Below are positions 16,519 through 63,463 of a stretch of 64,000 nucleotides of DNA, in pieces. Under the pieces are notes generated by a model. The model worked only from the letters and a program-made list of their open reading frames with translations. It made no database searches and was not told the origin of the DNA. Each line of letters starts with the position of its first letter. Position 1 is the stretch's first letter. A program made the translations under genes and the position numbers. The stretch comes from Dehalococcoidales bacterium (lineage in GTDB: Bacteria > Chloroflexota > Dehalococcoidia > Dehalococcoidales > UBA5760), in NCBI GenBank assembly GCA_028716225.1, contig JAQUQE010000003.1, forward strand, positions 619 to 64,618, read 5' to 3'.

Positions 16519-17391
16519 TTATAGCATATCGAGGAGCTTGTACATATCTTCATAGGCCTTGCCAAAGTCAGGATTAATGGTATTAAACCTGGCTTTCAGG
16601 GTCTTCATCTTACGGGCAAACCCGTCCCTGTCTTTCTTTGCCACCAGGTCGGCCCAGGCTTTTGCTTTTTCCTGAAATTCCTTCTCAGCTTCGGCCAGAT
16701 TGGGCAGGCACATCTGCAACGAGGCGTAAAGCTCGGGGTCCTCGGAAATAACGCTTTCGGTCAGGGTCGACAGCAGCTTAAAGGTGATGCCGCTAGCATT
16801 GCCAACTTGTCTTAAGCGGTTGAATCTCAGTATCGTATCACCGGCGACTATTGCGATGAAGTGGGAAAGACCCAGGACGACAGTCATAATTTCATCGTGT
16901 TCTTCCGGGCTGACCAGGGTTACCTTGGCCTCTCTTTTTTCCAGGTATTCCCTGGCTCTCTCGGCTATGGTCTGCTCCTCTTCGTTAGTGGGGGTTAACA
17001 TAAAGCTCCTGTTGGCGATATCTCTGGCACCGGGGCCAAACATCGGGTGCATGCCCAGCACCTTCCTTGATTTTATGTGTCTGTGAATTGCTGCCATCGG
17101 AAGTACTTTTACCGAGGTAATATCTATAATGATCTGCTCGCTACTGGTATGGGGGCCGATTTGTTCTACAACCGCCTCAAAATTATCTATCGGCACCGAT
17201 ATCAGGATGACCTGGGATCTCCGCACCGCTTCTATATTGTCTGTGGTGGCTTCAACAGTAAGCTGTTTGCCGGCCTCCCGCAGCTTTGCCTTGTTTCTCC
17301 CGGTTATTGTTACCTGGTGGCCTTCTTTCAGGGCAAAGCGGGCGAACCAGCGCCCCATATTTCCCGAGCCGCCGATGACTGCAATTTTCAT
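16519..17391 (-). CDS. tyrA: Prephenate dehydrogenase
   Basis: 290 aa. It starts MKIAVIGGSGNMGRWF (Rossmann fold) and has HPMFGP. Confidence 0.85.
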   Translation of the reverse strand: MKIAVIGGSGNMGRWFARFALKEGHQVTITGRNKAKLREAGKQLTVEATTDNIEAVRRSQVILISVPIDNFEAVVEQIGPHTSSEQIIIDITSVKVLPMAAIHRHIKSRKVLGMHPMFGPGARDIANRSFMLTPTNEEEQTIAERAREYLEKREAKVTLVSPEEHDEIMTVVLGLSHFIAIVAGDTILRFNRLRQVGNASGITFKLLSTLTESVISEDPELYASLQMCLPNLAEAEKEFQEKAKAWADLVAKKDRDGFARKMKTLKARFNTINPDFGKAYEDMYKLLDML

Positions 17392-17409
17392 GATTACCTC
17401 GTGGTTTGC

Positions 17410-18477
17410 TTAATTCGTCTTGGGGTAAGAACCCAGCACACGCAGGAATAGTGTGGCCTCCTCCAGATTGGCTAATACTTCTTTCGGTGCCTTGTCTTCC
17501 CGGTGGCCTTCAAAGTCGAGATAGAAATTGTATTCCCAGGCCTTTTGCCTTGTCGGGCGGGACTCAATCTTGGTCAGGTTGACGCCCTTGCTGGCGAATT
17601 TATTCAGCATTTCGTAGAGCGCCATCGGTTTGTGCTTTACTGAGAAGACTATCGATGTCTTGTCGTTTCCCGACGGGGGACAGTCCTCCTTGGCCAGTAT
17701 GAAGAACCGGGTGAAATTGCTCGGGTTGTCCTCTATCTCCCGGGCCAGTATCTTCATCTGGTAGATTTCAGCGGCCCGGGCACTGGCGATTGCCCCGGCG
17801 TCAGTTAAGCCTTTCTCCTTGATCATCTTTACGCTGGTGGCGGTATCCGAAGTTGGGGCTAATCTGCAGCCCAGCTGTTTTAAGAATGTCCGACATTGTC
17901 CCAGGGCTTGGGGGTGCGAGTAGACCTTCTTAACCGCATCCAGTCGTGTCTCGGGGTTGGCTACCAGGCAGTGAGTAACATGGAGCTCTAGTTCACCGCA
18001 CACCTTAAGGCTTGATGTCAGCAGCAGATCGTAAGACCTGCCTATTGTTCCTTCCAGGGAGTTCTCTATAGGAGCAATGCCGAACTGTACCTCGTCCTGC
18101 TCTACGGCCCTGAAAACGCTTTCCAGGCTTTCCTGAGGCTTGGTTATTGCCAGCGGGCCAAAAAACTTAAGGGCGGCCTCTTCGCTGTATGCCCCTGGCT
18201 CACCGGGAAAGGCGACCTCAATACCCTGTGTCCTGCGGCAGGCCGTCATTATCTGCTGGTAGATGCTCTCGATAACTCCCTGGTCCATATTTTCACTGCG
18301 GGCAATACTCCTGATATGTTCGGAGACCTTTTTCTCTCTTGCCCGGTCATTGATTTGTTTCCCCTCCCTTATTTTCTCTTTCCCTATCTCCCGCGCAATC
18401 CTTATTCTCTCACTGATTAGCTTGACAATCTCAGCATCGGTTTTATCGATTCTTTTTCTTAAATCTTCCAGGCTCAT
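17410..18477 (-). CDS. pheA: Bifunctional chorismate mutase / prephenate dehydratase (P-protein) with a C-terminal ACT domain
   Basis: 355 aa. It has an N-terminal CM_2 helix ([19 protein letters not shown]), a PDT domain (ESRP motif in TKIESRPTR) and an ACT tail. Confidence 0.9.
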
Positions 18478-19565
18478 TTTATCACCCTCGGTATTATTCC
18501 TGCCCGCATCGCCATGTCACAGATGGTTACCGCCATCATTGATTCTACAACAACCGCCGCCCGCGGTACGATGCAGGTATCATGCCTTCCCTGGATGGAC
18601 AGACTGGTACTCTCCATGTCCTTGATGTTTATCGTTGGCTGCTTCTTTCCGATAGATGGCGTTGGCTTAATCGCTACCCTAACCACTATCGGCATACCGT
18701 TACTTATTCCTCCCAGAATGCCTCCCGAGTTGTTAGTTGTGGTGACTATATTGCCGTCTTTGATGGTGAAAGGGTCGTTATTCTCAGAGCCTTTCTTAAC
18801 CGCTACGGATAAACCAGCTCCGAATTCGATCCCCTTAACGGAAGGGATAGCCAGAATAGCTTTGGCCATTTCACCGTCCAGTGTGTCAAAGACCGGTTCT
18901 CCTAAACCGGCAGGTACGTTAAGCGCGATTCCTTCTATGATGCCACCCAGGCTGTCCCCTTCTTTTCTGACCTCTTCAATAGCCTTAATCATCTCTTTGG
19001 CAGCATCAAGGTCAGCACATTTTAGCGGGTTCTTCCCCAGGTTTCCCCTTATTCTGTCAAATTCTTTCGGCTCGGCTTTGATACTGCCTATCTGAATAGT
19101 ATGGGCTATGACCTCAATGCCGATCCGGCCGATCAATTTCCTGGCAATAGCACCAGCCATAACAAAGCCGGCGGTAATTCTCCCGGAAAACCTGCCGCCG
19201 CCTCTGAAATCGTTGAATCCTCCGTACTTAACGAAGGCGGTGTAGTCAGCCTGTCCCGGTCTCATTAGGAATCTGGTCTGCTCGTACTCTCTTGAGTCTA
19301 TGTCTTTGTTCCATATCACCAAGCAGATAGGGGCGCCGGTAGTGATACCATTTCTGATTCCGGCAAGGACTTCAACTCTATCCTCCTCTGCCCTCTGTGT
19401 GGAGGCCATATCCGCCCCCGGCCTTCTTTTATCAAGGTCTTTCTGTATATTATCTTCGGTAACGGCCAGTCCGGCCGGGCAACCGTCGATAATGATCCCG
19501 ACACATCTGCCGTGGCTTTCTCCAAAGCTTGTTATGGTGAAAAGCTTACCCAGACTGTTCTCCAT
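18474..19565 (-). CDS. aroC: Chorismate synthase
   Basis: 363 aa with [17 protein letters not shown] and GGGRFSGR. Confidence 0.95.
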
Positions 19566-20820
19566 TTACCTTCACCTTACCTCCGATGCTTCTTAATACC
19601 TCCCAGAAATCAGGAAATGTTTTGGAGACGCATTCCGCATCGTTTATTATCGTTCCTCCGGCGACAAGCCCGGGTATACTGAATGCCATAGCAATACGGT
19701 GGTCATTCTTACTATCGATGGCTGCACTCTTCGGTTGGCTGCCGGTAACAGTTAGTCTATCCTTATCTTCCTGTACTTCTACCCCCATTTTCTCCAGCCC
19801 CTCCCTTAATGCGGAGACCCGGTTTGATTCCTTTATGCGTGCCCTTGCCACCCCGCTAAACTCGCTCCTGCCGCGGGTCAGTGCCGCCAGAACCGCCAGC
19901 GTCGGCAGCAGGTCTGTACAGTCGGATAAATCAGCCTGTATCGCCTTCAGGCTGGATTTTCTCACCGTTATAGCGCTCTTGCTTAACTCTATTGAGGCGC
20001 CCATATTCCTGAGAAAGTCCAGCATTATCCTGTCGCCTTGCCGGCTTTCCAGGTTCAGGTTCTTTACCGCTACCGTTCCTGATAGCGCCCCCATAGCCAG
20101 GAAATATGAAGCCGATGACCAGTCTCCCTCCACCCGGTACCTGGAGGGCTGGTATCTCTGCGGCGCTATCAGGAATTCTCTCAAATCCGGAGAGGCGGCC
20201 ACATTTACGCCGAACCTTTTCATACAGTCCATGGTCATCATAAGGTAAGGCTTTGACTCTACCGGTGTGGTCAGTCTGATCCGGACTTCCTGTTTGGCAA
20301 GCGGGGACGCAATGAGCAGCGCTGAGATATACTGAGAGCTGATATTACCGGGTAGCTCCGTTACGCCGCCTATTAGTCCGCCTCCCTTGACGGTTACCGG
20401 GGCTACTTCACCCTGGCAGGAGCAGTCTACTCCTAATTGCCTTAGTGCCTGAACCAGCGTTTTGACCGGCCTCCGGGCCAGGGAAGTGCCGGTAACTAAG
20501 CGGAATTTCCCTGATATTGACGAACAGACCGCCGTCATTAATCTCAAGGTGGCGGCGGAATCGGCGCAAAAGAGGTCTGCCGCTGCCTCGTGCAACTCTC
20601 CACCGGCAACCCGCCATAGGCCGTCTTCCTGCTGAATTTTTACTCCGATACTACCCAGTACATCCCGGGCAGCTTCAGTGTCCTCTGAGATCAGGGGATT
20701 TATGATTTCACTCTCGCCTCTGGCTAAGGCAGCGCAGATAAGCCCCCTGATAGTATAGCTCTTCGAGGCCGGGGCGATAACTTCCCCTGTTAATATGCTT
20801 TTCTCAACTAAGGCTTTCAT
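19546..20820 (-). CDS. aroA: 3-phosphoshikimate 1-carboxyvinyltransferase (EPSP synthase)
   Basis: 424 aa with [14 protein letters not shown] and DHRIAMAF. Confidence 0.95.
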
Positions 20821-21331
20821 ACTCTTTTATCTTGGCTGTTATTTGCCTGACCACGGAGTCGATATCCAGCCCTGAGGTATTTACTGTGACGTCGGCAGCC
20901 CGTTCGTAAAGCGGCCTGCGGAATCTTAACAGATCTTTAATGGTCAGGGCAGGGTTAGCTACAGCAAGCAGTGGCCTCTCATCGATATCTCTTGATATCC
21001 GCCTTAGTATTACCCGTGGTGAGGCAGTGAGGTATACGATTACCGCTTCCTTTCTTAGCCGGTCAATGTTTATTTTGTTTAATATAACACCACCCCCGCA
21101 GGCAATAACAGCATTCCTCTGCTGGCTGACTTCCTTAACGACCTCAATTTCGAACTCTCGAAAGGATATTTCCCCGTCCTCCTTGAATATTGCGGGAATA
21201 GTCTTCCTTGCTTTCTTTTCAATGAGGAGATCAAGCTCAAAGAACTCCTTACCCAGTTTCTCGGCCAGGGCCTTACCCACCGCAGTCTTTCCTGTCCCCA
21301 TGAAACCGATCAGGGCGATACTCGTCTTCAC
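20804..21331 (-). CDS. aroK: Shikimate kinase
   Basis: 175 aa with Walker A GFMGTGKT and ACGGG. Confidence 0.9.
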   Translation of the reverse strand: MKTSIALIGFMGTGKTAVGKALAEKLGKEFFELDLLIEKKARKTIPAIFKEDGEISFREFEIEVVKEVSQQRNAVIACGGGVILNKINIDRLRKEAVIVYLTASPRVILRRISRDIDERPLLAVANPALTIKDLLRFRRPLYERAADVTVNTSGLDIDSVVRQITAKIKEYESLS

Positions 21332-22197
21332 TTTCCTAAGGCCTTCATAGCTTCTTTTTTCATCAGCTCGAGGGGAGCTTTAAGACCCGTCCATTTTTCA
21401 AAGGCCAGTGCTCCCTGCCAGGCAAGCATATCGAGCCCGCTTATTGTACTGGCACCGGCTGCTTGCGCTTCTCTGAGCAGCCTCGTCTGTATAGGGTTAT
21501 ATACGATGTCGAAAACAACCGGGGTTGATTTCAGCAACCTCATCGGGACCGGTGTCTCATTGGTATCGGGGCTCATGCCGACGCTGGTTGTATTAACCAG
21601 GATATCGGTTCCTTCCAGTGCTTCTGCCAGATTTGCATCGTTTAGTTCCAGCGCTGCCGTCTCTTTCTTAAAGGCCCGGGATATCTCACGAGCCAGGTTT
21701 TCTGCCCATTCTATCTCCACCTGCCGGTTCAGAATAACCAGATTGGCGCCGCTTTCCGCAAGGATGAAAGAAATCCCTCTTGATGCGCCGCCAGCGCCCA
21801 GGACAACTACTTTCTTGCCCTCTGGTTTGATCCCCTTGTCCAGTAGTGCCTGTAGGAATCCGGTAGCATCGGTGTTGTAACCTCGCAAAGCCCCATTGTC
21901 ATTGACTATGGTGTTAACGGCACCTATCCGCTCGGCAATGGGGTCCAGCTCATCCAGAAATGAGATGACGGCTACTTTATGAGGGATGGTGACGTTCAAG
22001 CCGGCCAGGTTGAGGGCTCTGGCTCCTGCAATCGCCTGGCCCAGGTCATCTTTTTTTACCCGGAAGGGAAGATAGACGTAGTCTATGCCCAGTTCGCTGA
22101 AGGCAGCATTATGCATCACCGGTGACATGGTGTGCTCGATAGGGTCACCGATGACTCCGCAGACCCGTGTTTTCCCCGATACAACTCTATTTGTCAT
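21328..22197 (-). CDS. aroE: Shikimate 5-dehydrogenase
   Basis: 289 aa with SPVMHNAAF, NVTIPHK, NTD and VLGAGGASR. Confidence 0.9.
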   Translation of the reverse strand: MTNRVVSGKTRVCGVIGDPIEHTMSPVMHNAAFSELGIDYVYLPFRVKKDDLGQAIAGARALNLAGLNVTIPHKVAVISFLDELDPIAERIGAVNTIVNDNGALRGYNTDATGFLQALLDKGIKPEGKKVVVLGAGGASRGISFILAESGANLVILNRQVEIEWAENLAREISRAFKKETAALELNDANLAEALEGTDILVNTTSVGMSPDTNETPVPMRLLKSTPVVFDIVYNPIQTRLLREAQAAGASTISGLDMLAWQGALAFEKWTGLKAPLELMKKEAMKALGK

Positions 22198-22850
22198 CTT
22201 GGCACCATATCATAGAGTTTCCTTAACTGTCTGGCAGTTATCTGGCCGGGTGCGGACTCTCTGCCTTCTTCGATCGATGCGTAGGTAAAATCGCCACCGA
22301 CCAGTGGACAGAGAACCCGGCTCACCAGACCCAGCGGGCCCATGGCAAAGGAAACCATCCTTGTTTTAGGGAACTCGGTGATGAGCTTCAGTATGGTCAG
22401 GTTATCCTCCAGGCTCCCTGCTGTGGTGATCACCTTGCATACATCGGCGCCGGCTTCCATCTGTTTCTTGACTATTTCTTTGAGGCTGTCGAGGGGGGGC
22501 GTTTTTTTTAGTTCGTGGAATGACAGGAGGCACTTTGTTCTCTTCTTAATCTGCGGTATGATTTTTCCCAGTTCTCTTGTCTCGACCTCGATGTCAACCA
22601 TTGCGCAGCCAAGCTCACTGGCTTTCACCAGCTCCTCCGTCCGTTCTGCTTCGCTCTTTTCCCACCTGCCTCCTTCAACAGCGCTCCTGGCGCAGGCTAT
22701 CCATGGTTTCTCAAGCCGCCTGGCTATGTCCTGCCATCCCTCTCCAATGAAGTCTATCCGGACCTCGAATAGTTCAGCGAAAGGCTCAATCTCCCTCAGC
22801 GCTTTCTCGTCCCTGTTTGTGATAACAGCACAGATTCCGGGCTTTTTCAT
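22194..22850 (-). CDS. aroD: 3-dehydroquinate dehydratase, type I
   Basis: 218 aa TIM-barrel DHquinase_I (EVRIDF, the Schiff-base Lys region and SFAMG). Confidence 0.85.
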   Translation of the reverse strand: MKKPGICAVITNRDEKALREIEPFAELFEVRIDFIGEGWQDIARRLEKPWIACARSAVEGGRWEKSEAERTEELVKASELGCAMVDIEVETRELGKIIPQIKKRTKCLLSFHELKKTPPLDSLKEIVKKQMEAGADVCKVITTAGSLEDNLTILKLITEFPKTRMVSFAMGPLGLVSRVLCPLVGGDFTYASIEEGRESAPGQITARQLRKLYDMVPR

Positions 22851-22851
22851 C

Positions 22852-23925
22852 CTAACCTATCAGGGCCTGCTCTACTAAGGACAGATCCACCTCTTCGGTA
22901 ATGAACACCTTACCCAGCGATTCGGGCAGGATAAATCTCAGCCTTCCTTTCCAGACCTTTTTGTCCTGCTTCATCGCCGCAACCAGTTTTCCCATTCCCG
23001 GGTCGGGCAGTCTGGTGGGTAATCCAGCCCGCTTGATAAGGTCCTCCAGTCTGTCCAGTTCATTTTGTTTAAGTATGCTCATCCTTTGGGAAATTCTGGC
23101 CGCTGCTAACATCCCGATGGCTACCGCTTCACCGTGGCTTACCTTGAAATTTGAGACTGACTCAACGGCATGCCCCACGGTATGGCCGAAGTTCAGGATG
23201 GCCCTTAGCCCCAAGTCCTTCTCGTCCTTTTCCACTACCTCCGCCTTAATCTTAGCCGACCGGAAGACGATTTCCTCAACCGTCTCCGCATCGAGCAGTT
23301 TGATCTTATCGAGGTTATTCTCGAGGTAGGTAAAGAATCCTTCGTCTCGAATAACTCCATATTTTATCACTTCAGCCAGTCCGTTGGTAAACTGCTTGTC
23401 GTCAAGGGTTCTGATGGTATCAATGTCGCTGATTACCAGCCTTGGCTGATAAAAGGCCCCGATTTTGTTTTTTAACCGGTCGTGATCCAGCGCCACCTTA
23501 CCGCCGATGCTGCTGTCAACCTGTGCCAGCAGGGTGGTTGGTAACTGTACCAGCGGGACTCCCCTCAGGTATGTAGCAGCCACGAATCCGGCTAAGTCCC
23601 CGATAACCCCTCCCCCCAGGGCTAGAATAGGCGTGGTTCTTTCCGCATGGCATTCGGCTAATTCACGGTATAGTCTGCCGGCCGTTTCCAATGACTTTTG
23701 CTCTTCCCCATCGGGGATGGTGAGGTTGGTTACCGCAAATCCTGACGCGGTCAGGCTACGCCCGACGACGTCACCGTACAGGTCATGCACTACGGGGTTG
23801 CTGATGACCACCAGCCTGCCGTCAAAGCCTATTTCCTTTAGCTGATGGCCGCTTTGCTTCAGTATTCCCGGCCCGATATCAATATCGTAGCTGTTACTGC
23901 CCAGCCTTAGTCGAATTTCTTTCAT
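22852..23925 (-). CDS. aroB: 3-dehydroquinate synthase
   Basis: 357 aa with GGGVIGDLAGF, QVDSSIGGK and GHTVGHA. Confidence 0.93.
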   Translation of the reverse strand: MKEIRLRLGSNSYDIDIGPGILKQSGHQLKEIGFDGRLVVISNPVVHDLYGDVVGRSLTASGFAVTNLTIPDGEEQKSLETAGRLYRELAECHAERTTPILALGGGVIGDLAGFVAATYLRGVPLVQLPTTLLAQVDSSIGGKVALDHDRLKNKIGAFYQPRLVISDIDTIRTLDDKQFTNGLAEVIKYGVIRDEGFFTYLENNLDKIKLLDAETVEEIVFRSAKIKAEVVEKDEKDLGLRAILNFGHTVGHAVESVSNFKVSHGEAVAIGMLAAARISQRMSILKQNELDRLEDLIKRAGLPTRLPDPGMGKLVAAMKQDKKVWKGRLRFILPESLGKVFITEEVDLSLVEQALIG

Positions 23926-24982
23926 TTTTTCTTGTTGGGATCAGTTTGCTGATTTTACGACAGGTTTCAATAGTCTCCTTAAGTTCGTCAGGTGTGATAG
24001 CTTGCTGTGCATCAACCAGCGCTTCCGCCGGGTTGTAGTGCATCTCAATCATCAGGCCACTGGCACCTACGGCGATAGCGGCACAACTCATTTTGAAGAT
24101 AAGGTCTCGGCGTCCGGCCGCATGACTGGGGTCTACGATGATAGGCAGGTAGGTTTCTTTTTGAATGATCGGGACGGCGGACAGGTCGAGAGTATATCTG
24201 ATGTAGTTCTTACCTTTGCCTACAGGTAATACTCCTCTTTCACAGAGAATAATGTCCCGGTTGCCTTCAGCGGCAATGTATTCCGCAAAAGACAGGAATT
24301 CTTCAATGCTGGCGCCGAAATGGCGTTTGAACAGGATAGGTTTCTTTGTCCTGGCGACCTTCGTAAGCAGGTCTTGATTATACATGTTTCTCGTCCCTAT
24401 CTGGAGTATGTCGGCATACTCAGCAGCCAGTTCAACCTGTGTTTCTCCCCTTACCTCGGTTATCGTTGCCAGGTCGAATCTGTCCCCTGCTTCGCGGAGC
24501 CATTTAAGGGCCTCTCTGGCTTCTTCCCAGCCTATCGAGCCCAGCCCCTGGAAAGAGTGTACCGAGCTCCTCGGCTTGAAAATACCTCCTCTCAGGATAT
24601 GAGCTCCGCACTTAGCTGCGTCTTCAGCAATTCTCAGCAGTTGCTGGTGGCTCTCTACGGCACAAGGCCCGGCAATAAATACCGGTTCGTCTCCGCCTAT
24701 CTCAATGTTCTTTACCCTAACCGTCGTGTGCTCTGTGCCATCGTCGAAGAATTTGGCGTATTCCTTACTGATTAGCTTGTAGGGGACTTCAACCATGGCG
24801 GCCTCTTTTACACCGGGTAGTGCGGTCAGTTGTTCAAACGGCACCTTGCTTTCGTCTCCGACCAGTCCGATTATGGTACGGAATTTCCCCTTGGAAACAT
24901 CGGCTCTAAGACCGAGTTTATTTATTTCTTTAACCACATTGTTTACCTCATCTTTTGTGGCGTCGGTTTTCATGATTATCAT
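23894..24982 (-). CDS. aroF: DAHP synthase, type I-beta, with an N-terminal ferredoxin-like regulatory domain (Thermotoga-type)
   Basis: It aligns by eye along its full length with T. maritima DAH7PS (GPCAVES, RGGIFKPRSS, QIGTRN, KRHFG, VDPSHA). I chose ATG 24982 (MIIMKTD), which has a GAGGGG SD 4 nt upstream. Confidence 0.9.
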   Translation of the reverse strand: MIIMKTDATKDEVNNVVKEINKLGLRADVSKGKFRTIIGLVGDESKVPFEQLTALPGVKEAAMVEVPYKLISKEYAKFFDDGTEHTTVRVKNIEIGGDEPVFIAGPCAVESHQQLLRIAEDAAKCGAHILRGGIFKPRSSVHSFQGLGSIGWEEAREALKWLREAGDRFDLATITEVRGETQVELAAEYADILQIGTRNMYNQDLLTKVARTKKPILFKRHFGASIEEFLSFAEYIAAEGNRDIILCERGVLPVGKGKNYIRYTLDLSAVPIIQKETYLPIIVDPSHAAGRRDLIFKMSCAAIAVGASGLMIEMHYNPAEALVDAQQAITPDELKETIETCRKISKLIPTRKNERNSTKAGQ

Positions 24983-25044
24983 CTGTCCCCTCACTTTTCA
25001 TCTGGATATAATATTTCGATGCTGTTTGCTCTTGTTTTGCTTTT

Positions 25045-25077
25045 AAAAATAGAAAGACCCTCCCGCTTTAGGAGGGT
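25045..25077 (-). terminator. Intrinsic terminator (attenuator) in the aro operon leader
   Basis: On the minus strand: ACCCTCC (25077-25071), loop TAAAGCG, GGAGGGT (25063-25057), then CTTTCTATTTTT. It lies about 60 nt upstream of the aroF start. Confidence 0.55.
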
Positions 25078-25122
25078 TTCTGAGCTTCGACTGTTCAATT
25101 TGTTGGCTCGTAATGCATCTAT

Positions 25123-25212
25123 TTAATGCTGATCCCTCCAGGCGCACCTTATGCGCCAGGTAAATGCAAAACGGGTATAATAACACAATTTGTGAAGAGC
25201 AACACTCAACAT
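25123..25212 (-). CDS. Candidate aro leader peptide (29 aa): MLSVALHKLCYYTRFAFTWRIRCAWRDQH
   Basis: ATG with a GAGGTGA SD 9 nt upstream. It contains 2 Tyr, 2 Phe and 2 Trp codons. The stop lies 8 nt after a GGAGGG that is identical to the terminator 3' arm. Confidence 0.45.
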   Translation of the reverse strand: MLSVALHKLCYYTRFAFTWRIRCAWRDQH

Positions 25213-25240
25213 ATTGACGTTCACCTCGTCTATGTAGACT

Positions 25241-25269
25241 AAGTTAGCATAAGGAACACGGTTTGTCAA
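25241..25269 (-). promoter_or_regulatory. Putative promoter of the aro leader/operon (TTGACA-17-TAACTT)
   Basis: The -35 TTGACA is at 25269-25264 and the -10 TAACTT at 25246-25241 (minus-strand reading). Confidence 0.3.
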
Positions 25270-25347
25270 TATATTTCCCCTGATGCTATGCTGTTCGGGC
25301 GGATGGTTGCCGATGTGGTAGAATGGGAGAAATCAGGGAGTGTGAAT

Positions 25348-25914
25348 ATGGAGAACCGGGTTACGGAAGTTAATGTCGGTAGTGCCAGGCTGCATATAAT
25401 CCAGGGGGACATTACCAAGCAGAGTACCGATGCCGTTGTCAATGCCGCTAATTCCAGTTTAATGGGTGGTGGTGGCGTCGATGGCGCTATCCATAAGGCC
25501 GGTGGTCCCACCATTTTAGAAGAGTGTAAAAAGATTGTATCCCGGCAGGGGCGGTTGCCAACCGGTAAGGCGGTAATTACCACCGGCGGTAATCTTAGGG
25601 CAAGGTATGTGATCCACACCGTTGGTCCCGTCTGGCGTGGCGGTGATAAGGGAGAATCGGAACTGCTGGCCAGTGCCTATCAGGAGAGTTTACGTTTGGC
25701 TGTGGGAAACAAGCTGCACAGCATCTCCTTTCCCTCAATAAGCACCGGCATCTATGGCTATCCGGTTGAACTGGCGGCCGAAGTGGCTCTCGGTACTGTC
25801 GTCGCCTTCCTGCAACAGGGTCCTGCCGCTCTTGAAGAAGTGGTCTTCGTGCTGTTTGATAGCGAGACATTTGCTGCTTACTCAAGGGCTCTAAAGGAAT
25901 TGGTTGAGCAATGA
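25348..25914 (+). CDS. Macro-domain protein (O-acetyl-ADP-ribose deacetylase / ADP-ribose binding, YmdB-like)
   Basis: Motifs GDITKQSTDAVVNAANSSLMGGGGVDGAIH and SFPSISTGIYGYP. I chose ATG 25348, which has a GGGAG SD. Confidence 0.85.
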   Translation: MENRVTEVNVGSARLHIIQGDITKQSTDAVVNAANSSLMGGGGVDGAIHKAGGPTILEECKKIVSRQGRLPTGKAVITTGGNLRARYVIHTVGPVWRGGDKGESELLASAYQESLRLAVGNKLHSISFPSISTGIYGYPVELAAEVALGTVVAFLQQGPAALEEVVFVLFDSETFAAYSRALKELVEQ

Positions 25915-32966: not shown

Positions 32967-33446
32967 CTAGCGGTGCTCTATCTCTTGAGATGAACATTGG
33001 CAGGGTCCCTTATTCAGGTCGTGACCACAGGTCGGACATAGCCCGGCACAGTCCTCACGACAGAGCAGTTTCATCGGGACAGCCAGCAGAGCATATTGGC
33101 GCACCGCTTCGGTCAGGTCAAGAATATGCTGTCCGTTGATAGTAAAACACCCCGGTTCATCAGGTAGAGACTGCGGAATCCCGCTATCTATGTTGACGAC
33201 GGGGAAATACTCCTCTTCAATTTCTAGTGTCAGCGGAGCACGAAACAAATTCAAGCAGCGACCGCAACTGACCTCAACCCCGGTATGTAGTGTTGCCTTA
33301 ACCAGGATGCCCCGGTTGGTGCGCACCAGGGAAACATCACCCTGGACCAAGCTGTCACTACCGGAGATATTAACGGTATCACTTACCCTGTAATTTCGTG
33401 TTGCCCCAATGGATGATTTAAGCAGCCCGGATACGTTGGTCTGCAT
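32967..33446 (-). CDS. yceD: DUF177 (YceD-family) protein
   Basis: 159 aa with a C-terminal CREDCAGLCPTCG, in the canonical position upstream of rpmF. GGAGG SD. Confidence 0.85.
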   Translation of the reverse strand: MQTNVSGLLKSSIGATRNYRVSDTVNISGSDSLVQGDVSLVRTNRGILVKATLHTGVEVSCGRCLNLFRAPLTLEIEEEYFPVVNIDSGIPQSLPDEPGCFTINGQHILDLTEAVRQYALLAVPMKLLCREDCAGLCPTCGHDLNKGPCQCSSQEIEHR

Positions 33447-33512: not shown

Positions 33513-33631
33513 CGTGCTTATTTCTTTTTGGCATTACTGATCCCGGACCTTGGACAAACATAAAGAGCCCAGATTCCATACCTGAGCCCTCTTTACTTTC
33601 GGTTAAATCGACTAATATCAATTCTGAAGCA

Positions 33632-36594
<2,963 letters not shown>

Positions 36595-36765
36595 TGCTTC
36601 AGATTTGATATTAGTCCTTATTCAGTTATTAAGGTACAACAGACACAAAAACGGCCTGGTGACTTACCACCAAGCCGCTCGCCTGGTTTTCAATCACCCT
36701 GCTTCCCTTTTTATGTCTTAAACATCCTCATAGGCTATTACAGCAGCACCTTATGCTGATAGGAA

Positions 36766-36794
36766 ATAGTAGCATATAATAATAGCCTTGTCAA
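36766..36794 (-). promoter_or_regulatory. Putative 23S rRNA promoter (TTGACA-17-TACTAT)
   Basis: On the minus strand, TTGACA is at 36794-36789 and TACTAT at 36771-36766, about 170 nt upstream of the mature 23S 5' end. Confidence 0.5.
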
Positions 36795-47629: not shown

Positions 47630-48982
47630 GTGAACACATCAGCAAGGGCTATAAAAGACCGGCCAGTAATCGGATGTAAAGAAAGATCAGATAGGGCAGA
47701 AAATAGCGGGGGTGTCGTCGAAGACGAACCTCCCGGTAAAGCCGATACCTTCGGCAATTGCGCAGAGGAACCACCAAGTAAGACCGCCACCAACAGAGAC
47801 AGGTTTTTCGGTAATGTACCGGACAGTAACTGGAACGACTGGAGGTGGCATTTTCGTAACCGCATCACTACTGTTGATAAACTGGCTGGCTTTATCCCGC
47901 TGTCCGGTAGTGAGAAGGCTCAGATCAAGCTGGTCACCATGAAGTACCCCCTTTCCGTGACCCCCTATTATCTCTCGCTGATCAACCCGGACGATCCGGA
48001 AGACCCGATTAGGAAACAGGCGATACCATCTATCCTGGAGATCACTATGGGGATGGTGGGTCTGGAAGACCCTCTTGATGAGATGAGGGATTCGGTAGTG
48101 CCAGGTCTGGTTCACCGCTACCCCGACCGGGTCTTGATGGTGCTTACCGATATCTGTCCTATGCTCTGCCGGCACTGTACCCGTAAGCGAGAGTGGCGGA
48201 ACGGCGGTTGGGTACGTAATCCCGCCGAGGTTGAAGCCATGCTTGACTATATTCGCCACCATGAAGCCATCAGGGATGTCATCATATCGGGCGGTGACCC
48301 CTTGACGCTTTCCACGCCTCATCTGGAGGGGGTCATCTCTAAAATCAGAGCTATTAAACATGTGGAGATCATCCGTATCGGGACTAGATTTCCGGTAGTG
48401 CTCCCGCAGCGTATTGACGATGAGCTGTGTGCGATGCTGTCCCGGTACGGTCCGATATGGCTCAACACGCATTTTAATCACCATCAAGAAATCACCCCGG
48501 AAGCGGCGGCGGCCTGCGACCGGTTACTCCGTAGCGGTATTCCGGTCAACAACCAGTCGGTGCTCTTGCGCGGAGTGAATGACAGCGTGGCGGCTCAGAT
48601 GAAGCTGTGCCACGGACTACTCAGAATTAAGGTGCGCCCCTACTATCTGTTCCAGTGTGACGAGGTGCAGGGTACCGAGCACCTGCGCACCCCGGTTGAT
48701 GCTGGTATCAGCATTATTGAAGGGCTACGCGGACATACCTCAGGGCTGGCGGTACCTACCTTTGTGATAGACTTACCTCAGGGGGGTGGCAAGGTGCCCG
48801 TACAGCCAAACTATGTCCTGACAAAGAAGAAGGGAGAGCTGCTGCTGAGAAACTACGAGAGACGCTTCTTCCGTTACCGCAATCTGAAAGTACCGGCAGA
48901 TCTGGAGCCGGAGCCGGCACCGGAGGTAATAAGTCCTTTAAGCGGTTCTGATTCCGGCTTACTGGTAGAAACGGGGGCCTAA
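47630..48982 (+). CDS. kamA: Lysine 2,3-aminomutase (KamA/AblA family radical SAM, PLP-dependent)
   Basis: 450 aa. It aligns by eye with Clostridium subterminale LAM: WNDWRWHFRNRI, the cluster motif CPMLCRHCTRKR, SGGDPL, QCDEVQG, and VIDLPQGGGK (PLP Lys). Confidence 0.9.
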   Translation: MNTSARAIKDRPVIGCKERSDRAENSGGVVEDEPPGKADTFGNCAEEPPSKTATNRDRFFGNVPDSNWNDWRWHFRNRITTVDKLAGFIPLSGSEKAQIKLVTMKYPLSVTPYYLSLINPDDPEDPIRKQAIPSILEITMGMVGLEDPLDEMRDSVVPGLVHRYPDRVLMVLTDICPMLCRHCTRKREWRNGGWVRNPAEVEAMLDYIRHHEAIRDVIISGGDPLTLSTPHLEGVISKIRAIKHVEIIRIGTRFPVVLPQRIDDELCAMLSRYGPIWLNTHFNHHQEITPEAAAACDRLLRSGIPVNNQSVLLRGVNDSVAAQMKLCHGLLRIKVRPYYLFQCDEVQGTEHLRTPVDAGISIIEGLRGHTSGLAVPTFVIDLPQGGGKVPVQPNYVLTKKKGELLLRNYERRFFRYRNLKVPADLEPEPAPEVISPLSGSDSGLLVETGA

Positions 48983-48993
48983 TCCGGGGGTTA

Positions 48994-50004
48994 GTGATGC
49001 GTATTGGTCTGGCCTATGATCTTAAAGAGGTTATCAATCCGGAGGCGGATGGTCCTGAGGATGCCCTGGAAGAGTATGATTCCGGTGAGACGATTGATCT
49101 GATTAGCACGGCGTTTAAATCAGCCGGTCATTCGGTAGTCAATATGGGCGGGGGATCTGATTTTCTTCTTAATATTCTCAGGGAAAGAGTTGACCTGGTC
49201 TTCAACATAGCTGAGGGTAGGGGTAACTACCGAAGCCGGGAGGCCCAGGTGCCCTCCGTTCTGGAGATGCTGGACATCCCTTACTCCGGTTCTGATCCTC
49301 AGTGTCTGGCGATTTGCCTCGATAAGCCCCTTACCAAGCAGTTGATTAAAGCCGCGGGTGTCCCTACTCCGGCCTGGCATGTTATTGATACTCCGGAGCA
49401 TCTATCAGCGGTGTCCTGGAACGGACTAGCCTACCCGGCGATTATCAAGCCCGCTTACGAGGGTTCAAGCAAGGGCATTCATGTTGGCTCTCTGGTAAGC
49501 AACCCGGAGGAAGCAGTTGAGGTGGTAGGGCGTCTTCTTAAATGCTATCGGCAGCCGATGATGCTGGAGGAGTTTATTCCCGGTGATGAGGTCACTGTAG
49601 GTGTAGTCGGTAATACACCGCCCGCAGTACTGGGTATGATGAGGATAGTGCCCAAGAAAAAGGTTGACCATTTTGTCTACTCGCTTGAGGTGAAGCGTGA
49701 CTACCTCAATCTGGTTGACTACGAGTGCCCGGCCCGTCTTGAAGAAGATGTCTTAGCGGAGATAGCGGCATCCAGCCTTAAGGCCTTTTCCGTGCTGGGG
49801 TGCCGGGACTTTGCCCGGTTGGACTTTAGAGTTGGCCCGGATAGAATACCCTATTTTATTGAGGTAAACCCTCTGCCCGGGCTTGGTACATACAGCGACC
49901 TGATTATCATGGCACTCAAGCTGGGCTGGCGTTATGAGGAACTCATCGACACTATACTCAGGGCGGTGGTAAAGAGATATCCGCAATGCGTGCTGGCTCG
50001 GTGA
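48994..50004 (+). CDS. ATP-grasp ligase, D-alanine--D-alanine ligase family (paralog 1)
   Basis: 336 aa with LEMLDIPYSGS, LDKPLTKQL, EEFIPGDEVTVGVVG and ARLDFRV...YFIEVNPLPG. Confidence 0.85.
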   Translation: MMRIGLAYDLKEVINPEADGPEDALEEYDSGETIDLISTAFKSAGHSVVNMGGGSDFLLNILRERVDLVFNIAEGRGNYRSREAQVPSVLEMLDIPYSGSDPQCLAICLDKPLTKQLIKAAGVPTPAWHVIDTPEHLSAVSWNGLAYPAIIKPAYEGSSKGIHVGSLVSNPEEAVEVVGRLLKCYRQPMMLEEFIPGDEVTVGVVGNTPPAVLGMMRIVPKKKVDHFVYSLEVKRDYLNLVDYECPARLEEDVLAEIAASSLKAFSVLGCRDFARLDFRVGPDRIPYFIEVNPLPGLGTYSDLIIMALKLGWRYEELIDTILRAVVKRYPQCVLAR

Positions 50005-50010
50005 GAGGGT

Positions 50011-51015
50011 ATGGTATCAAGGAGACGTATTGCAGTTGTCTATAACGAGCCCTCCCCCTCGCGTTACGATACCACCGGGGAAGAAAAGGCTGCTCTGGGT
50101 GTTCTGGAGTCGGTGGAGGCGGTCAGCCGTGCTCTTCTTGACCTTGGCTATGACACCCTCAATATTCCGCTGGCCTCTCCTATCGAGGCAGCCCGGGAAA
50201 AGCTCGGGTCTTTGAAGGTAGATCTGGTCTTCAATCTCTTCGAAGGCTTTTGTGGGCAGCCGGAGACCGAAGCGATGGTACCCGATTTTTTAGCCGGGCT
50301 TGGTATAGCTTACACCGGCTGCCCGGCTAGCGCGCTAAAAGTAGCCCTGGATAAGGCTAAGTCCAAGCAGATTATGAAAGCGGCTGGAATCAAGACGCCC
50401 GATTCCCAGCTGCTTACTTCCGAGGCTCTCTCCCGGTTTAACCTGGGTTATCCCTGTATCGTCAAGCCCCGTGGTGAGGATGCGAGCCACGGTTTATCTC
50501 AAGCCAGCGTGGTGAATGACCTTAAGTCACTGGCAGGTCAGGTTAGCAAAGTGTGCCAGTTCTATGGCGGTGAAGCGCTGGTAGAAGAGTTTGTTGATGG
50601 GCGGGAGTTCAATGCTACCGTTCTCGGCAACGGCGGTGGTGTCGTACTACCCGTATCGGAAATCGTCTATTCACTGCCTTCGGACATGCCTCGAATTCTT
50701 ACCTTCGCTGCTAAATGGGAACCGGAAAGCCGGTACTTCAAGGGAACGAAGAATATCTGTCCCGCCCAAATTTCCTCTACCACTCAGCAGTATATTACCG
50801 GAACGGCACGCAGGGCTTTCTTGCTGCTGTGCTCCTGGGGCTATGCCAGGGTGGACATGCGTTTAGATAGAGAAGGTGAGCTCAACGTAATCGAGGTGAA
50901 TCCAAACCCCGATATCTCCCCCGGTTCTGGAGCCGTGCTTCAGGCTGAAGCCGCCGGGATGAACTACACCCAGTTCATAGATAAGATTACCCGGCTTGCT
51001 TTTAAGAAGGGTTAG
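50011..51015 (+). CDS. ATP-grasp ligase, D-alanine--D-alanine ligase family (paralog 2)
   Basis: 334 aa with LGIAYTGC, LDKAKSKQI, EEFVDGREFNATVLG and ARVDMRLD...NVIEVNPNP. Confidence 0.85.
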   Translation: MVSRRRIAVVYNEPSPSRYDTTGEEKAALGVLESVEAVSRALLDLGYDTLNIPLASPIEAAREKLGSLKVDLVFNLFEGFCGQPETEAMVPDFLAGLGIAYTGCPASALKVALDKAKSKQIMKAAGIKTPDSQLLTSEALSRFNLGYPCIVKPRGEDASHGLSQASVVNDLKSLAGQVSKVCQFYGGEALVEEFVDGREFNATVLGNGGGVVLPVSEIVYSLPSDMPRILTFAAKWEPESRYFKGTKNICPAQISSTTQQYITGTARRAFLLLCSWGYARVDMRLDREGELNVIEVNPNPDISPGSGAVLQAEAAGMNYTQFIDKITRLAFKKG

Positions 51016-51017
51016 TC

Positions 51018-51497
51018 ATGACAGTCAGTATGAGACCTATGACCCGGGATGATAAGCCGGAAGTAATCAGGCTGCTTAAGGCTACGCCGGAGTTTGAGCC
51101 GTCTGAGGTGGTGGTAGCGGAAGAAGTTATCGATTGCTACCTTGACCGACTGTCCGGATCAGGGTACCACGTTCAGGTAGCGGTAGCAGAGTCGGAGGTG
51201 GCCGGCTATGTCTGCTACGGGCCCACCCCAATGACTGAAGGCACCTGGGACCTTTACTGGGTGGCGGTCTCCGCTGAGAGGCAGGGTGGAGGTATCGGTA
51301 GTGCCTTAGTTAAACTGGCTGAAAACGAGGTAAGAAGCGCCGGGGGGAGGCAGATTCTTATTGAGACATCATCCAAGCCGGGGTATGAAAAAACGAGGCG
51401 TTTTTACTTCAGCCGGGGTTATCAGATAGTCGGCTGTATCCCTGATTTCTATACGTCCGGGGATGATAAGCTTGTACTCCGAAAACTATTGGTGTGA
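51018..51497 (+). CDS. GNAT-family N-acetyltransferase
   Basis: 159 aa with the acetyl-CoA motif RQGGGIGSALV and ARRFY-like RRFYFSRGY. Confidence 0.85.
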   Translation: MTVSMRPMTRDDKPEVIRLLKATPEFEPSEVVVAEEVIDCYLDRLSGSGYHVQVAVAESEVAGYVCYGPTPMTEGTWDLYWVAVSAERQGGGIGSALVKLAENEVRSAGGRQILIETSSKPGYEKTRRFYFSRGYQIVGCIPDFYTSGDDKLVLRKLLV

Positions 51498-51574
51498 TAC
51501 CCCGGGGCGCAATCCGAAGATCAGGATTATTGATATAATAGTGTTGCGGCGTCGAAAAAAAGCGGGATAAGAGC

Positions 51575-53353
51575 GTGTTTAGAATTCGTAGAGTTTACGA
51601 CAATGTAACTCCGCTGAACGAAGAAGCAATTGGCCAGGTTCAGGAAATCCTCCGCACCCAGTTTCCTGGTCTGTCCCGGAGGGACATTGCCAAATTACCC
51701 CAACAACTGCGCAACCCTTTGAAGTATCGCTTTCGTGCCATTCTCTTTGTGGCCGAGGACTCGAAGGATAGGGTGATGGGTTTTGCCATTCTCTTTCACG
51801 AGCCGGTGCTTAACTTTGGCTTCCTCGATTTCATATCCGCGGCCGAACGAGAGACTGGTAAGGGTATTGGCAGTGCCCTCTACGAGAGGGTTTGTGAAGA
51901 AGCCCTCTTCCTGAAAACGGTCGGGCTTTTCCTGGAGTGCCTGCCGGATGATCCCAAGCTGTCACGTAACCCTGAAATCAGAAAGCAGAATGTCGCTCGG
52001 CTGCGCTTCTATGAAAGATACGGTGCCAGGCCGATTGCCAACACCGCTTACGAAACCCCTCTAGAACCTGGAGGCGATAATCCCCCTTACCTGGTTTATG
52101 ATGACCTGGGCCAGGGTAGACCTCTGGGGCGAGATGAAGCACGTGCTATTGTCCGGGTGATTCTGGAACGAAAGTATAAGGGTGTCTGCCCTCAGAACTA
52201 CATTGAGATGGTGGTCGAGTCGTTTCAGGATGACCCGGTAAAACTGAGAAAACCGAGGTACGTAAGGAAGAAGCCGCCGGTACCGGTCAGGATTTCCCCG
52301 CCGCTTGACAAACGCATCAGGCTGGTTATCAACGACCGACACGCCATTCATCATGTCGAGGAGCGTGGCTACGTTGAATCTCCGGTAAGGATAAGCTCGA
52401 TTCTGGAGGAGCTTGAGACCACCCGGCTTTTTCACAAGGTCAGCCCCCGGCACTTCGCCGAAAAACGAATCAAGGCAGTCCACCGCAGCCAGTTTGTTGA
52501 CTACCTGAAGAAAGTGTGCACTAACCTCGACCCGGACAAGTCCATTTATCCCTACGTCTTTCCGATTCGTAATGTCGCCCGCCCTCCCAAGGAGCTTTCC
52601 ATCCGGGCAGGCTATTATTGCATCGATACCTTTACGCCGATAAATCGGAATGCCTATCTGGCAGCCAGAAGGGCGGTAGACTGTGCTCTGACTGCAGCGA
52701 AAGAGATTCTGGACGGGTACCGTCTGGCTTATGCCCTGGTCAGGCCGCCCGGTCACCATGCCGAAAGGCGTGCTTTCGGCGGCTTCTGTTACTTTAACTC
52801 GGCGGCCGTAGCTGCCGAGTATTTGAGTGTTCATGGTAAGGTTGCCATACTGGATATTGACTATCACCACGGCAATGGACAGCAGAATATATTCTACGAG
52901 CGTGCCGATGTCTTGACCGTATCTATTCACGGCCACCCCAATTTTGCCTATCCCTACTTCAGTGGTTTTGAAGGCGAGGAAGGTGCCGGCCCCGGCAAGG
53001 GGTATAATGTCAATATTCCTCTCCCTGAGAATGTCAGTAATGAACGCTATCTCAATGTGCTGGGTCGAGCACTGGGGCGAGTAGCCAGATTCAGACCCAA
53101 ATTTCTCATCGTTACCCTTGGACTGGATACGGCTAAAGAAGACCCGACGGGTAGCTGGAGCTTACAGGGCGAGGATTTCCAGACTATAGGAAAGATGATT
53201 GGCTCGCTCCATTATCCGACCATTGTCGTCCAGGAAGGAGGCTACGATACCAGGGTGCTCGGTATCAATGCCCGCCACTTTTTCGAAGGGCTCTGGACCG
53301 GTTCTTTCACCTTACCCCCGCGCTCCGGCAGGAAAAAGCCGGCGATGGAATAG
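51575..53353 (+). CDS. Fusion protein: an N-terminal GNAT-like domain plus a C-terminal histone-deacetylase-family (AcuC/APAH-like) zinc amidohydrolase
   Basis: 592 aa. Residues 1 to about 200 carry RETGKGIGSALYERV (the GNAT Q/RxxGxG motif). Residues from about 250 carry RPPGHHA, DIDYHHGNG and EGGY (HDAC catalytic His pair, Asp/His zinc ligands, catalytic Tyr). Confidence 0.85.
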   Translation: MFRIRRVYDNVTPLNEEAIGQVQEILRTQFPGLSRRDIAKLPQQLRNPLKYRFRAILFVAEDSKDRVMGFAILFHEPVLNFGFLDFISAAERETGKGIGSALYERVCEEALFLKTVGLFLECLPDDPKLSRNPEIRKQNVARLRFYERYGARPIANTAYETPLEPGGDNPPYLVYDDLGQGRPLGRDEARAIVRVILERKYKGVCPQNYIEMVVESFQDDPVKLRKPRYVRKKPPVPVRISPPLDKRIRLVINDRHAIHHVEERGYVESPVRISSILEELETTRLFHKVSPRHFAEKRIKAVHRSQFVDYLKKVCTNLDPDKSIYPYVFPIRNVARPPKELSIRAGYYCIDTFTPINRNAYLAARRAVDCALTAAKEILDGYRLAYALVRPPGHHAERRAFGGFCYFNSAAVAAEYLSVHGKVAILDIDYHHGNGQQNIFYERADVLTVSIHGHPNFAYPYFSGFEGEEGAGPGKGYNVNIPLPENVSNERYLNVLGRALGRVARFRPKFLIVTLGLDTAKEDPTGSWSLQGEDFQTIGKMIGSLHYPTIVVQEGGYDTRVLGINARHFFEGLWTGSFTLPPRSGRKKPAME

Positions 53354-57211: not shown

Positions 57212-57230
57212 TATTAACCCCTCCTGGTAT

Positions 57231-58909: not shown

Positions 58910-58916
58910 CTGATCG

Positions 58917-59855: not shown

Positions 59856-59869
59856 ATTTCCCCTCTACT

Positions 59870-60787: not shown

Positions 60788-60833
60788 TTATATTTATCCT
60801 CCTTTATCCTTTAACCCCATCATAGCAGGCGGA

Positions 60834-60872
60834 GTTTAAGACGAGTTTAAGCGCCTGTTAAATTTCTGTTAA
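60834..60872 (-). promoter_or_regulatory. Pho-box array: four direct hexamer repeats with exact 11-bp phasing, upstream of pstS
   Basis: The minus strand reads TTAACA gaaat TTAACA ggcgc TTAAAC tcgtc TTAAAC, followed 9 nt later by the -10-like TATGAT (60824-60819). Confidence 0.6.
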
Positions 60873-60884
60873 ATCTGATGGGGT

Positions 60885-63434: not shown

Positions 63435-63463
63435 TTGACACAGAATTCCCGTGTTGATATCTT
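63435..63463 (+). promoter_or_regulatory. Putative promoter (TTGACA-17-TATCTT)
   Basis: The hexamers were read directly, about 45 nt upstream of the ATG at 63508. Confidence 0.35.

Follow-up and report, generated by a model that had tools for sequence, protein, structure and literature searches.

A candidate ribosome-mediated attenuator with a tyrosine/phenylalanine leader peptide upstream of the shikimate operon of uncultured Dehalococcoidales

The aro operon and the elements of its leader

A contiguous stretch of 64,000 nucleotides from a Dehalococcoidales bacterium (contig JAQUQE010000003.1 of assembly GCA_028716225.1) was analyzed, which is called the window throughout. Its minus strand carries a nine-gene operon, aroF-aroB-aroD-aroE-aroK-aroA-aroC-pheA-tyrA (16519-24982), and the DNA upstream of aroF contains the leader that is the subject of this report, a candidate ribosome-mediated transcription attenuator. 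Pfam confirmed the original prediction, made from the sequence of the window, that the operon encodes the complete common part of the shikimate pathway plus pheA and tyrA. The product of aroF is a DAHP synthase with an N-terminal ferredoxin-like domain, and pheA encodes a chorismate mutase-prephenate dehydratase-ACT protein (CM-PDT-ACT). The most likely start codon of aroF is the ATG at 24982, judged from the conserved sequence ATGATAATNATG, which encodes M-I-I-M, and from a Shine-Dalgarno (SD) motif located about 5-7 nt upstream in related genomes; other candidates are a GTG at 24994, which was given in the list of open reading frames (ORFs), and an ATG at 24973. Therefore, the leader region was taken to end at 24982. 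All leader coordinates refer to the minus strand of the window.

The order aroF-aroB-aroD-aroE-aroK was retained in the relatives. In contrast, the gene upstream of the leader varied and was, for example, a macro-domain gene, rpsL-rpsG-fusA, thrS-infC, or an oxidoreductase gene. Because the upstream gene differs between loci, the leader belongs to the aro operon. In the window, the upstream neighbor is a divergent macro-domain gene, as identified with Pfam.

The sequence elements on which the original prediction was based were all found at the positions given there. The possible promoter TTGACA-17-TAACTT (25241-25269) consists of a -35 element at 25269-25264, a 17-nt spacer, and a -10 element at 25246-25241, and a TG dinucleotide at 25249-25248, which had not been included, makes it an extended -10 promoter. 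Transcription is predicted to start near 25235-25233, about 22 nt upstream of the leader start codon. TTGACA, the TG, and the nucleotides A2 and T6 of the -10 element were invariant in the first 15 leaders compared, and they were kept in those later leaders that reached far enough upstream. The pattern TTGACA-N13-16-TGnTAnnnT had three matches in the window, whereas 0.11 were expected. One other copy (TTGACA-N14-TGnTAnnnT, 36794-36766) precedes a 23S rRNA gene as its own promoter, and the third copy is found at 63435-63463 on the plus strand, near a phosphate-uptake gene cluster. The divergent macro-domain gene (25288-25914, plus strand) has a promoter-like sequence of its own, TTGTCA-18-TATGCT with a TG (25263-25292, plus strand), which overlaps the -35 element of the aro promoter on the opposite strand.

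The SD motif of the leader, GAGGTGA (25221-25227), is complementary to the usual 3' end of bacterial 16S rRNA and lies 8 nt upstream of the ATG at 25212. This ATG opens an ORF of 29 codons plus a TAA stop codon at 25125-25123 (MLSVALHKLCYYTRFAFTWRIRCAWRDQH, 25123-25212). The predicted peptide contains the six aromatic residues that had been reported for it, i.e. Y11, Y12, F15, F17, W19, and W25. The putative regulatory run comprises the codons TAT TAT ACC CGT TTT GCA TTT (Y11 Y12 T R F15 A F17; 25162-25182).

Seven nucleotides past the last phenylalanine (Phe) codon, the 5' arm of a GC hairpin begins, GGCGCA-UAAGG-UGCGCC (25141-25157; -11.3 kcal/mol). Next to it lies a segment designated R2 (25126-25140), the putative antiterminator strand, which comprises the G-run UGGAGGG (25140-25134) and the flank AUCAGCAU. 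It duplicates the 3' arm of the terminator, and its GGAGGG (25139-25134) is situated 8 nt ahead of the leader stop codon, as had been noted. The terminator hairpin (25057-25077) is composed of R3, ACCCUCC(U) (25077-25070), the loop AAAGC, and R4, (G)GGAGGGU (25064-25057). A terminator scan also retrieved it, in agreement with the previously recognized arms ACCCTCC (25077-25071) and GGAGGGT (25063-25057) and the following CTTTCTATTTTT. Its stability is -13.5 kcal/mol, and the terminator motif occurred once in the window versus 0.08 expected occurrences. Premature 3' ends are predicted to lie in the U-rich tail CUUUCUAUUUUU (25045-25056); a T-rich tail follows the stem in the relatives, too. R3 has two alternative partners, R2 and R4, and the spacer between the G-run and the terminator, about 55 nt, is variable across relatives.

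A further segment, R1 (25193-25212), is a candidate anti-antiterminator. It is located in codons 4-9, is rich in C, and can pair with R2 plus the 3' flank of R2 in most relatives; in the window, AUGUUGA (25212-25206) is complementary to UCAGCAU (25132-25126), and CUCUUCA (25199-25193) to UGGAGGG (25140-25134). The original model comprised three elements. These represent the conserved core of the leader, but the GC hairpin at 25157-25141 and the C-rich R1 had been overlooked. From the sequences compared, R1 appears to be a frequent addition to the three-element core.

Conservation of the leader and of its aromatic codons

For the comparative analysis, loci were collected at which AroF was at least 70% identical to AroF of the window and at least about 240 nt of upstream DNA were present (n = 46, all from uncultured Dehalococcoidales). 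With AroF as the query, a scan of one genome per species yielded 19 loci, and its members at 71-99% identity were all metagenome-assembled Dehalococcoidia/Dehalococcoidales. A metagenome scan added 36 further loci, and look-ups of more AroF homologues added nine further ones. The sample and the outgroup loci cover AroF identities of at least 70% and of 53-56%, respectively, and cultured Dehalococcoides and Dehalogenimonas would fall between these two ranges. At least 120 AroF clusters (at 90% identity) belong to the Dehalococcoidales clade, and among the matches listed all were at least 72% identical. Folds with a ribosome mask covered 15 leaders, the column alignment contained 34 sequences, and codons were compared in 36 leaders that included the start codon; the ORF was also followed in six leaders added later. 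Individual loci are denoted by L numbers.

The leader was present in 44 of the 46 loci. The shared content comprised TTGACA with the extended -10 element, the AGGTG SD motif, the ATG, an ORF of 18-37 codons, the GC hairpin, the G-run, and the CCCUCC/GGAGGG terminator. The spacers between these elements have been randomized by divergence across the relatives, while the arrangement persists. A covariance model of the sensor domain, built from 30 leaders, found exactly one match per locus, and this match was always upstream of aroF, also in 7 held-out loci. The leader was absent from four outgroup loci with AroF proteins of 53-56% identity, and the two loci of the sample that lacked it, L034 and L064, represent a single sub-lineage. 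In both of these (L034, 1070-1500; L064, 361-1200; AroF identity 74-75%), aroF starts 3 nt after a gene for an ABC-transporter ATPase, with which it is presumably co-transcribed.

Taken alone, the window offers modest evidence, and the aromatic enrichment of its ORF is marginal (four of seven codons, shuffle p of about 0.05); the decisive evidence is conservation. A lack of conservation of the ORF or of its aromatic codons had been named beforehand as an outcome that would speak against an attenuator. We found the ORF, its frame, the SD motif, and the aromatic run to be conserved in the 44 loci, even where AroF identity was as low as about 70%. Each of the 42 leaders with a start codon in the available sequence (the 36 and the six added later) had an ORF of 18-37 codons that opened from the aligned ATG, which was replaced by GTG in L030. 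An SD motif of the AGGTG type preceded the ORF in most relatives, AGGTG being the majority sequence in the 34-sequence alignment, and both the SD motif and the ATG occupied a constant aligned position.

The conserved in-frame core of the leader peptides reads Y-Y-x-(Y)-F-x-F. When the last Phe is taken as position 0, this Phe was found in 36 of 36 leaders and was always encoded by TTT, and tyrosine (Tyr) was equally invariant at position -5. An aromatic residue was present at position -2 in all 36 leaders and at position -6 in 33 of them, and Tyr was present at position -3 in 27. The best seven codons contained on average 5.0 aromatic codons in the leader frame (4-6 in the runs), whereas the two alternative frames averaged 1.0 and 2.1. 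Distant members had runs such as YSYYYYYYF and YYYWYYAF. Insertions and deletions within the run were multiples of three, wobble changes occurred between TAT and TAC and between TTT and TTC, and codons for Tyr, Phe, and tryptophan (Trp) replaced one another. The length and the ends of the leader peptide were variable, and the terminal sequences shifted frame relative to the RNA elements (an alternative start was seen in L011). The constraint appears to act on the aromatic codons as coding units, not on a peptide.

The codon usage of the run was biased. In the 36 leaders, TAT was used 106 times and TAC 23 times, and TTT 55 times and TTC 18 times, whereas the nine aro genes of the window had the opposite preference (TAT 14, TAC 33; TTT 38, TTC 57). 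The preference for TAT and TTT resembles the use of rare codons in known leaders. The non-preferred codons would sharpen stalling of the ribosome; an alternative cause of the bias would be the AT-richness of the segment.

It had been proposed that the leader senses all three aromatic tRNAs, and for tRNA-Trp this could not be upheld. Eleven of the 36 leaders were devoid of any Trp codon. In the others, Trp codons were confined to the UGG within the hairpin arm CUGGCGC or, in one clade, to a position just before the Tyr run. Because Trp codons are not conserved and the operon lacks trp genes while containing pheA and tyrA, the sensor would read Tyr and Phe, but not Trp. The leader codons for Tyr and Phe match the end products of the operon, which are formed via pheA and tyrA.

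When measured from the G-run, the position of the leader stop codon varied between -12 and +35 nt across the family. Four placements could be distinguished: the stop codon was located within the hairpin loop, directly next to the G-run, or 14 nt or 23-35 nt past the start of the G-run.

In addition, the clade comprising L012, L013, L033, L038, L040, L043, and L045 carries a four-codon mini-ORF, (A/G)UG-NNN-(AUG/UUG/UUU)-UA(A/G), 7-8 nt past the SD-like G-run. In L013, the AUG of the mini-ORF overlaps the UGA stop codon of the leader (AUGA). This mini-ORF could be a re-initiation site or just a small hairpin.

Three mutually exclusive helices co-vary

The segments R1 to R4 can form the three helices R1:R2, R2:R3, and R3:R4, with mean duplex energies of -18.8, -18.3, and -17.1 kcal/mol, respectively. 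Z-scores below -2 were obtained for R1:R2 in 25 and for R2:R3 in 27 of 36 leaders. Because homopolymer runs slip in any column alignment, an alignment-free test was applied, in which the helix partners were exchanged between sequences (n = 39). Cognate partners formed more stable duplexes than swapped partners for R1:R2 (p ≤ 0.0002), R2:R3 (p ≤ 0.0012), and R3:R4 (p ≤ 0.0002). The three mutually exclusive helices thus co-vary.

The column alignment was used to quantify pairing in the OFF state, i.e. the core of R1:R2, the hairpin, and the terminator. In this state 80.6% of the cells were paired, compared with 43-63% when the partners were slid against each other. The covariation score was 0.244 versus 0.185 in shuffled alignments, and none of 500 shuffles reached 0.244. 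For the terminator, 95% of the cells were paired in the 34 leaders, with compensatory changes at three pairs; for the GC hairpin, the respective values were 87-88% and also three pairs. Realignment with the covariance model left register slips in the helix between C-run and G-run, of which 61.9% was paired.

The G-run was nearly invariant across the leaders and reads UGGAGGG in the window and UUGGGGGG in most relatives. The complementarity of R2 and R3 amounted to 79% of the cells overall and to about 85-97% at six core pairs, so that the proposed pairing of GGAGGG with CCCTCC as an antiterminator was kept in about 85-97% of the sequences at these core pairs. Among the more divergent members, L059 exhibited a compensation in the antiterminator, where CCGGGAGG and CCUCCCGG are the pairing partners instead of UUGGGGGG and CCCUCCCAA. 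In most relatives, the antiterminator strand includes the 3' arm of the GC hairpin, and the pairing of R2 with R3 reaches this arm as well as the terminator loop (CGCUUGGGGGG with CCUCCCAAGCG). Therefore, the hairpin and the full antiterminator compete.

The flanks of R1 and R2 differed by clade, yet they stayed complementary, with CAUCC/GGAUG versus UAUCC/GGAUA as one example and ACGUCCCC/GGGGGGACGU and GUCCCUCAAGC/GCUUGGGGGGC as others. The C-run of R1 was located in different reading frames in different clades, and thus R1 is a feature at the level of the RNA.

The leaders of L026 and L044 (1261-1500 in each case) are nearly identical apart from an inverted terminator top, CCCTCCGCTTGGGAGGG versus CCCTCCCAAGCGGAGGG. 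The inversion preserves the terminator and loses the loop part of the antiterminator pairing.

Equilibrium folding of the full leader cannot separate the two states, and RNAs ending just before R4 were folded instead. With a ribosome mask on the Tyr/Phe codons, R2:R3 formed in 14 of 15 leaders, and with the mask at the stop codon it was absent in 11 of 15, including that of the window. When the ON and OFF states of the window leader were enforced, they were 5 kcal/mol apart without a ribosome and 0.5-3.7 kcal/mol apart with a stalled ribosome.

Proposed attenuation mechanism, alternatives, and precedents

The conservation, complementarity, and co-variation described above support the original interpretation of the leader. 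It is very probably a ribosome-mediated transcription attenuator that makes expression of the whole aro-pheA-tyrA operon depend on how much charged tRNA-Tyr and tRNA-Phe is available. Transcription would begin about 22 nt upstream of the leader ATG, with immediate loading of a ribosome. When Tyr-tRNA and Phe-tRNA are ample, the ribosome would proceed to the stop codon and cover the UGGAGGG of R2. That a ribosome at the stop codon masks the G-run had been proposed before, and both geometry and in silico masking are consistent with it, as the stop codon of the window leader lies 14 nt past the start of the G-run and R2 would be covered. Upon release of the ribosome, R2 would be sequestered by the neighboring GC hairpin and also by R1, whose pairing is strong in the majority of relatives. 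R3 (CCCUCC) would remain free to pair with R4 (GGAGGG), and the resulting terminator would end transcription in the U-tract at about 25056-25045. In leaders with a stop codon 23-35 nt past the start of the G-run, the ribosome would pass over R2, and R1 would need to recapture it.

Upon starvation, a ribosome stalled on the Tyr/Phe codons (25182-25162) would sit on either R1 or the 5' hairpin arm and stop short of R2. R2 would then pair with R3 as soon as the latter has been made, the terminator would be blocked, and RNA polymerase would read into aroF. Stalling at the first Tyr codons would cover R1, and stalling at the Phe codons would cover the 5' arm of the hairpin, such that the whole antiterminator strand is freed. 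The choice between ON and OFF would be kinetic and not an equilibrium.

Several results weigh against this mechanism. In folds of the full-length RNA, the terminator was the state of minimum energy under all free and all stop-masked conditions and also in nearly all folds with a stalled ribosome, from which L018 and L013 deviated at a small number of stall positions. Because the terminator is the equilibrium structure under nearly every condition, the switch must be kinetic, like that of classical attenuators. Column covariation of the antiterminator was no better than in shuffles, and owing to the homopolymer runs, 73.5% of the antiterminator was still paired after a slide by one column. Unaided, RNAalifold recovered just the small GC hairpin from a MAFFT alignment. 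The U-tract is interrupted by a C and an A. R1 of the window is weak (RNAduplex energy -12.5 kcal/mol, z-score -0.6), and R1 is nearly absent in L056 and L062; a weak R1 may be compensated by the hairpin and by a ribosome positioned at the stop codon. Furthermore, the whole case is built on the comparison of sequences from metagenome-derived genomes, and tight coupling of transcription and translation is not known from Chloroflexota.

Three alternative explanations were considered. The one that survives best, although we regard it as improbable, is a terminator/antiterminator switch that is worked by a protein, a small ligand, or an uncharged tRNA, while the short ORF is incidental. The nucleotides of the hairpin, the G-run, and the terminator are indeed more conserved than the peptide, the invariant TTT of the last Phe codon indicates some constraint at the RNA level there, too, and Dehalococcoides has T-boxes at ileS, trpE, and a trpB-like gene (PMC2494555). 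However, such a switch leaves the SD motif, the ATG, the kept reading frame, the in-frame insertions and deletions, the wobble-only changes, and the exchange of Tyr, Phe, and Trp codons unexplained. Moreover, RNAalifold revealed no conserved aptamer-like structure apart from one hairpin of 6-7 bp. No Rfam family matched the window, the leader (24900-25400, even at E ≤ 10), or 20 related loci (at the gathering score). In accordance with the earlier observation that T-box motifs are missing, this included the T-box model RF00230, which had no match at E ≤ 10 in 24900-25400 and none at the gathering score in the window or the 20 relatives.

Two specific candidates were rejected. The Rfam family RF01859 (Phe_leader) scored 17.2 bits compared with a gathering score of 55 and was aligned on the terminator hairpin alone. 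With respect to a TRAP-like control, the leader contains two GAG triplets, but no array of (G/U)AG repeats.

Still less probable is a second alternative, namely that the ORF encodes a functional small peptide or is an upstream ORF affecting the translation of aroF or the stability of the mRNA, and that the hairpin is a leaky terminator or a stabilizer. The conserved ORF with its good SD motif would fit, and leader peptides acting in trans have been described, as outlined for peTrpL in PMC7298713. However, peptides of 18-37 residues with variable termini, in which the aromatic codons alone are kept, do not look like a conserved product, the stop codon lies 140-150 nt upstream of aroF with the terminator in between, which makes translational coupling unlikely, and the co-variation of three mutually exclusive helices is left without an explanation. 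Finally, the chance resemblance of an ordinary 5' untranslated region with an ORF and a hairpin, to which the marginal aromatic enrichment (p of about 0.05) and the non-significant R1 of the window could point, has a negligible probability, being in effect refuted by the occurrence of the arrangement in 44 of 46 loci across a divergence that randomized the spacers.

Among the known systems, a ribosome-mediated attenuator of this type has its closest functional precedent in the aroR leader of Corynebacterium glutamicum, where a short Phe/Tyr leader peptide likewise precedes the DAHP synthase gene aroF. As summarized in a review (PMC11802643, referring to Neshat et al. 2014), aroR contains a Phe-Tyr-Phe motif, stalling raises transcription, and the leader responds to Phe, but not to Tyr. 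Compared by this motif, the leader described here differs from its actinobacterial counterpart in having 4-9 aromatic codons, with Tyr being dominant, and in the predicted control of nine genes, including pheA and tyrA. It shares with pheL-pheA of E. coli the aromatic regulatory codons, the terminator/antiterminator arrangement, and, as predicted, the control of a chorismate mutase-prephenate dehydratase gene. However, the gammaproteobacterial pheL contains only Phe codons and controls a single gene, and the present leader is not homologous to it.

With trpL of E. coli, the mechanism proposed for the leader has in common the logic of the 1:2, 2:3, and 3:4 helices, the selection of the structure by the position of the ribosome, and the masking of segment 2 by a ribosome at the stop codon. 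Unlike in trpL, R1 lies upstream of the regulatory codons and does not contain them, a single G-run is the target of two nearly identical segments, R1 and R3 (CCCUC(C)AAGC), an additional hairpin separates the codons from R2, and some members have a weak R1 or none. T-box leaders (RF00230) perform the same task, the sensing of tRNA charging to override a terminator, and they occur in Dehalococcoidia; in Firmicutes, they serve aromatic amino acid genes. However, T-boxes recognize uncharged tRNA by direct binding and work independently of translation, and T-box features were not detected in the present leader.

According to a survey from 2010, leader peptides for amino acid genes were then known just in Proteobacteria and Actinobacteria, and the survey added a few in Firmicutes (PMC2965389). 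We found no report of a leader-peptide attenuator for Chloroflexi/Dehalococcoidia in the literature, although an earlier mention in the survey of Lopatovskaya et al. (2010) is possible. The claim of novelty in the original prediction has to be narrowed, because a Phe-Tyr-Phe leader ahead of aroF is already known in C. glutamicum (PMC11802643), but the present family and its occurrence in this phylum are apparently unreported. It seems reasonably likely that the leaders constitute a family of leader-peptide attenuators for amino acid sensing that is the first to be described in Chloroflexota and that arose independently of the proteobacterial and actinobacterial ones, with a dual Tyr and Phe sensor reading UAU and UUU, two nearly identical C-rich decoys for one SD-like G-run, and the whole shikimate pathway plus pheA/tyrA being gated. 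The mechanism itself is textbook knowledge and would not surprise specialists; new are apparently the family, the lineage, the mixed run of Tyr and Phe codons, and the control of the common pathway together with both terminal branches.

A conserved family of this kind would extend leader-peptide attenuation to another deep lineage and represents a candidate RNA family without an entry in Rfam 15. It also offers a rare handle on regulation in the Dehalococcoidales, whose mostly uncultured members are abundant in sediments. If the proposed mechanism is true, it implies tight coupling of transcription and translation in Dehalococcoidia and predicts a Tyr/Phe-responsive control. Attenuation would add to the likely allosteric control of DAHP synthase via its ferredoxin-like domain, for which a regulatory role is established in DAHP synthases of the Thermotoga type.

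With regard to the rest of the window, no further operon for amino acid biosynthesis was identified when the 40 remaining large ORFs were compared with Pfam, and a terminator scan of the whole window for other attenuators was too noisy to be of use. The 23S rRNA gene mentioned above (33629-36794, minus strand) is followed by a yceD-like gene (32967-33446) as the next gene. Because the window contains no 16S rRNA gene upstream and no 5S rRNA gene downstream of the 23S rRNA gene, the rRNA genes appear to be unlinked. A cluster on the plus strand (47630-53353) encodes a lysine 2,3-aminomutase-like radical SAM protein, two ATP-grasp proteins resembling D-Ala-D-Ala ligase, a GNAT acetyltransferase, and a GNAT-deacetylase fusion, and it may represent a pathway to a beta-lysine-derived solute or peptide. 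The phosphate-uptake cluster (56543-63334, minus strand) comprises genes for a response regulator, a PAS/HAMP histidine kinase, a PBP-like binding protein, a permease, and an ABC ATPase, as well as phoU.

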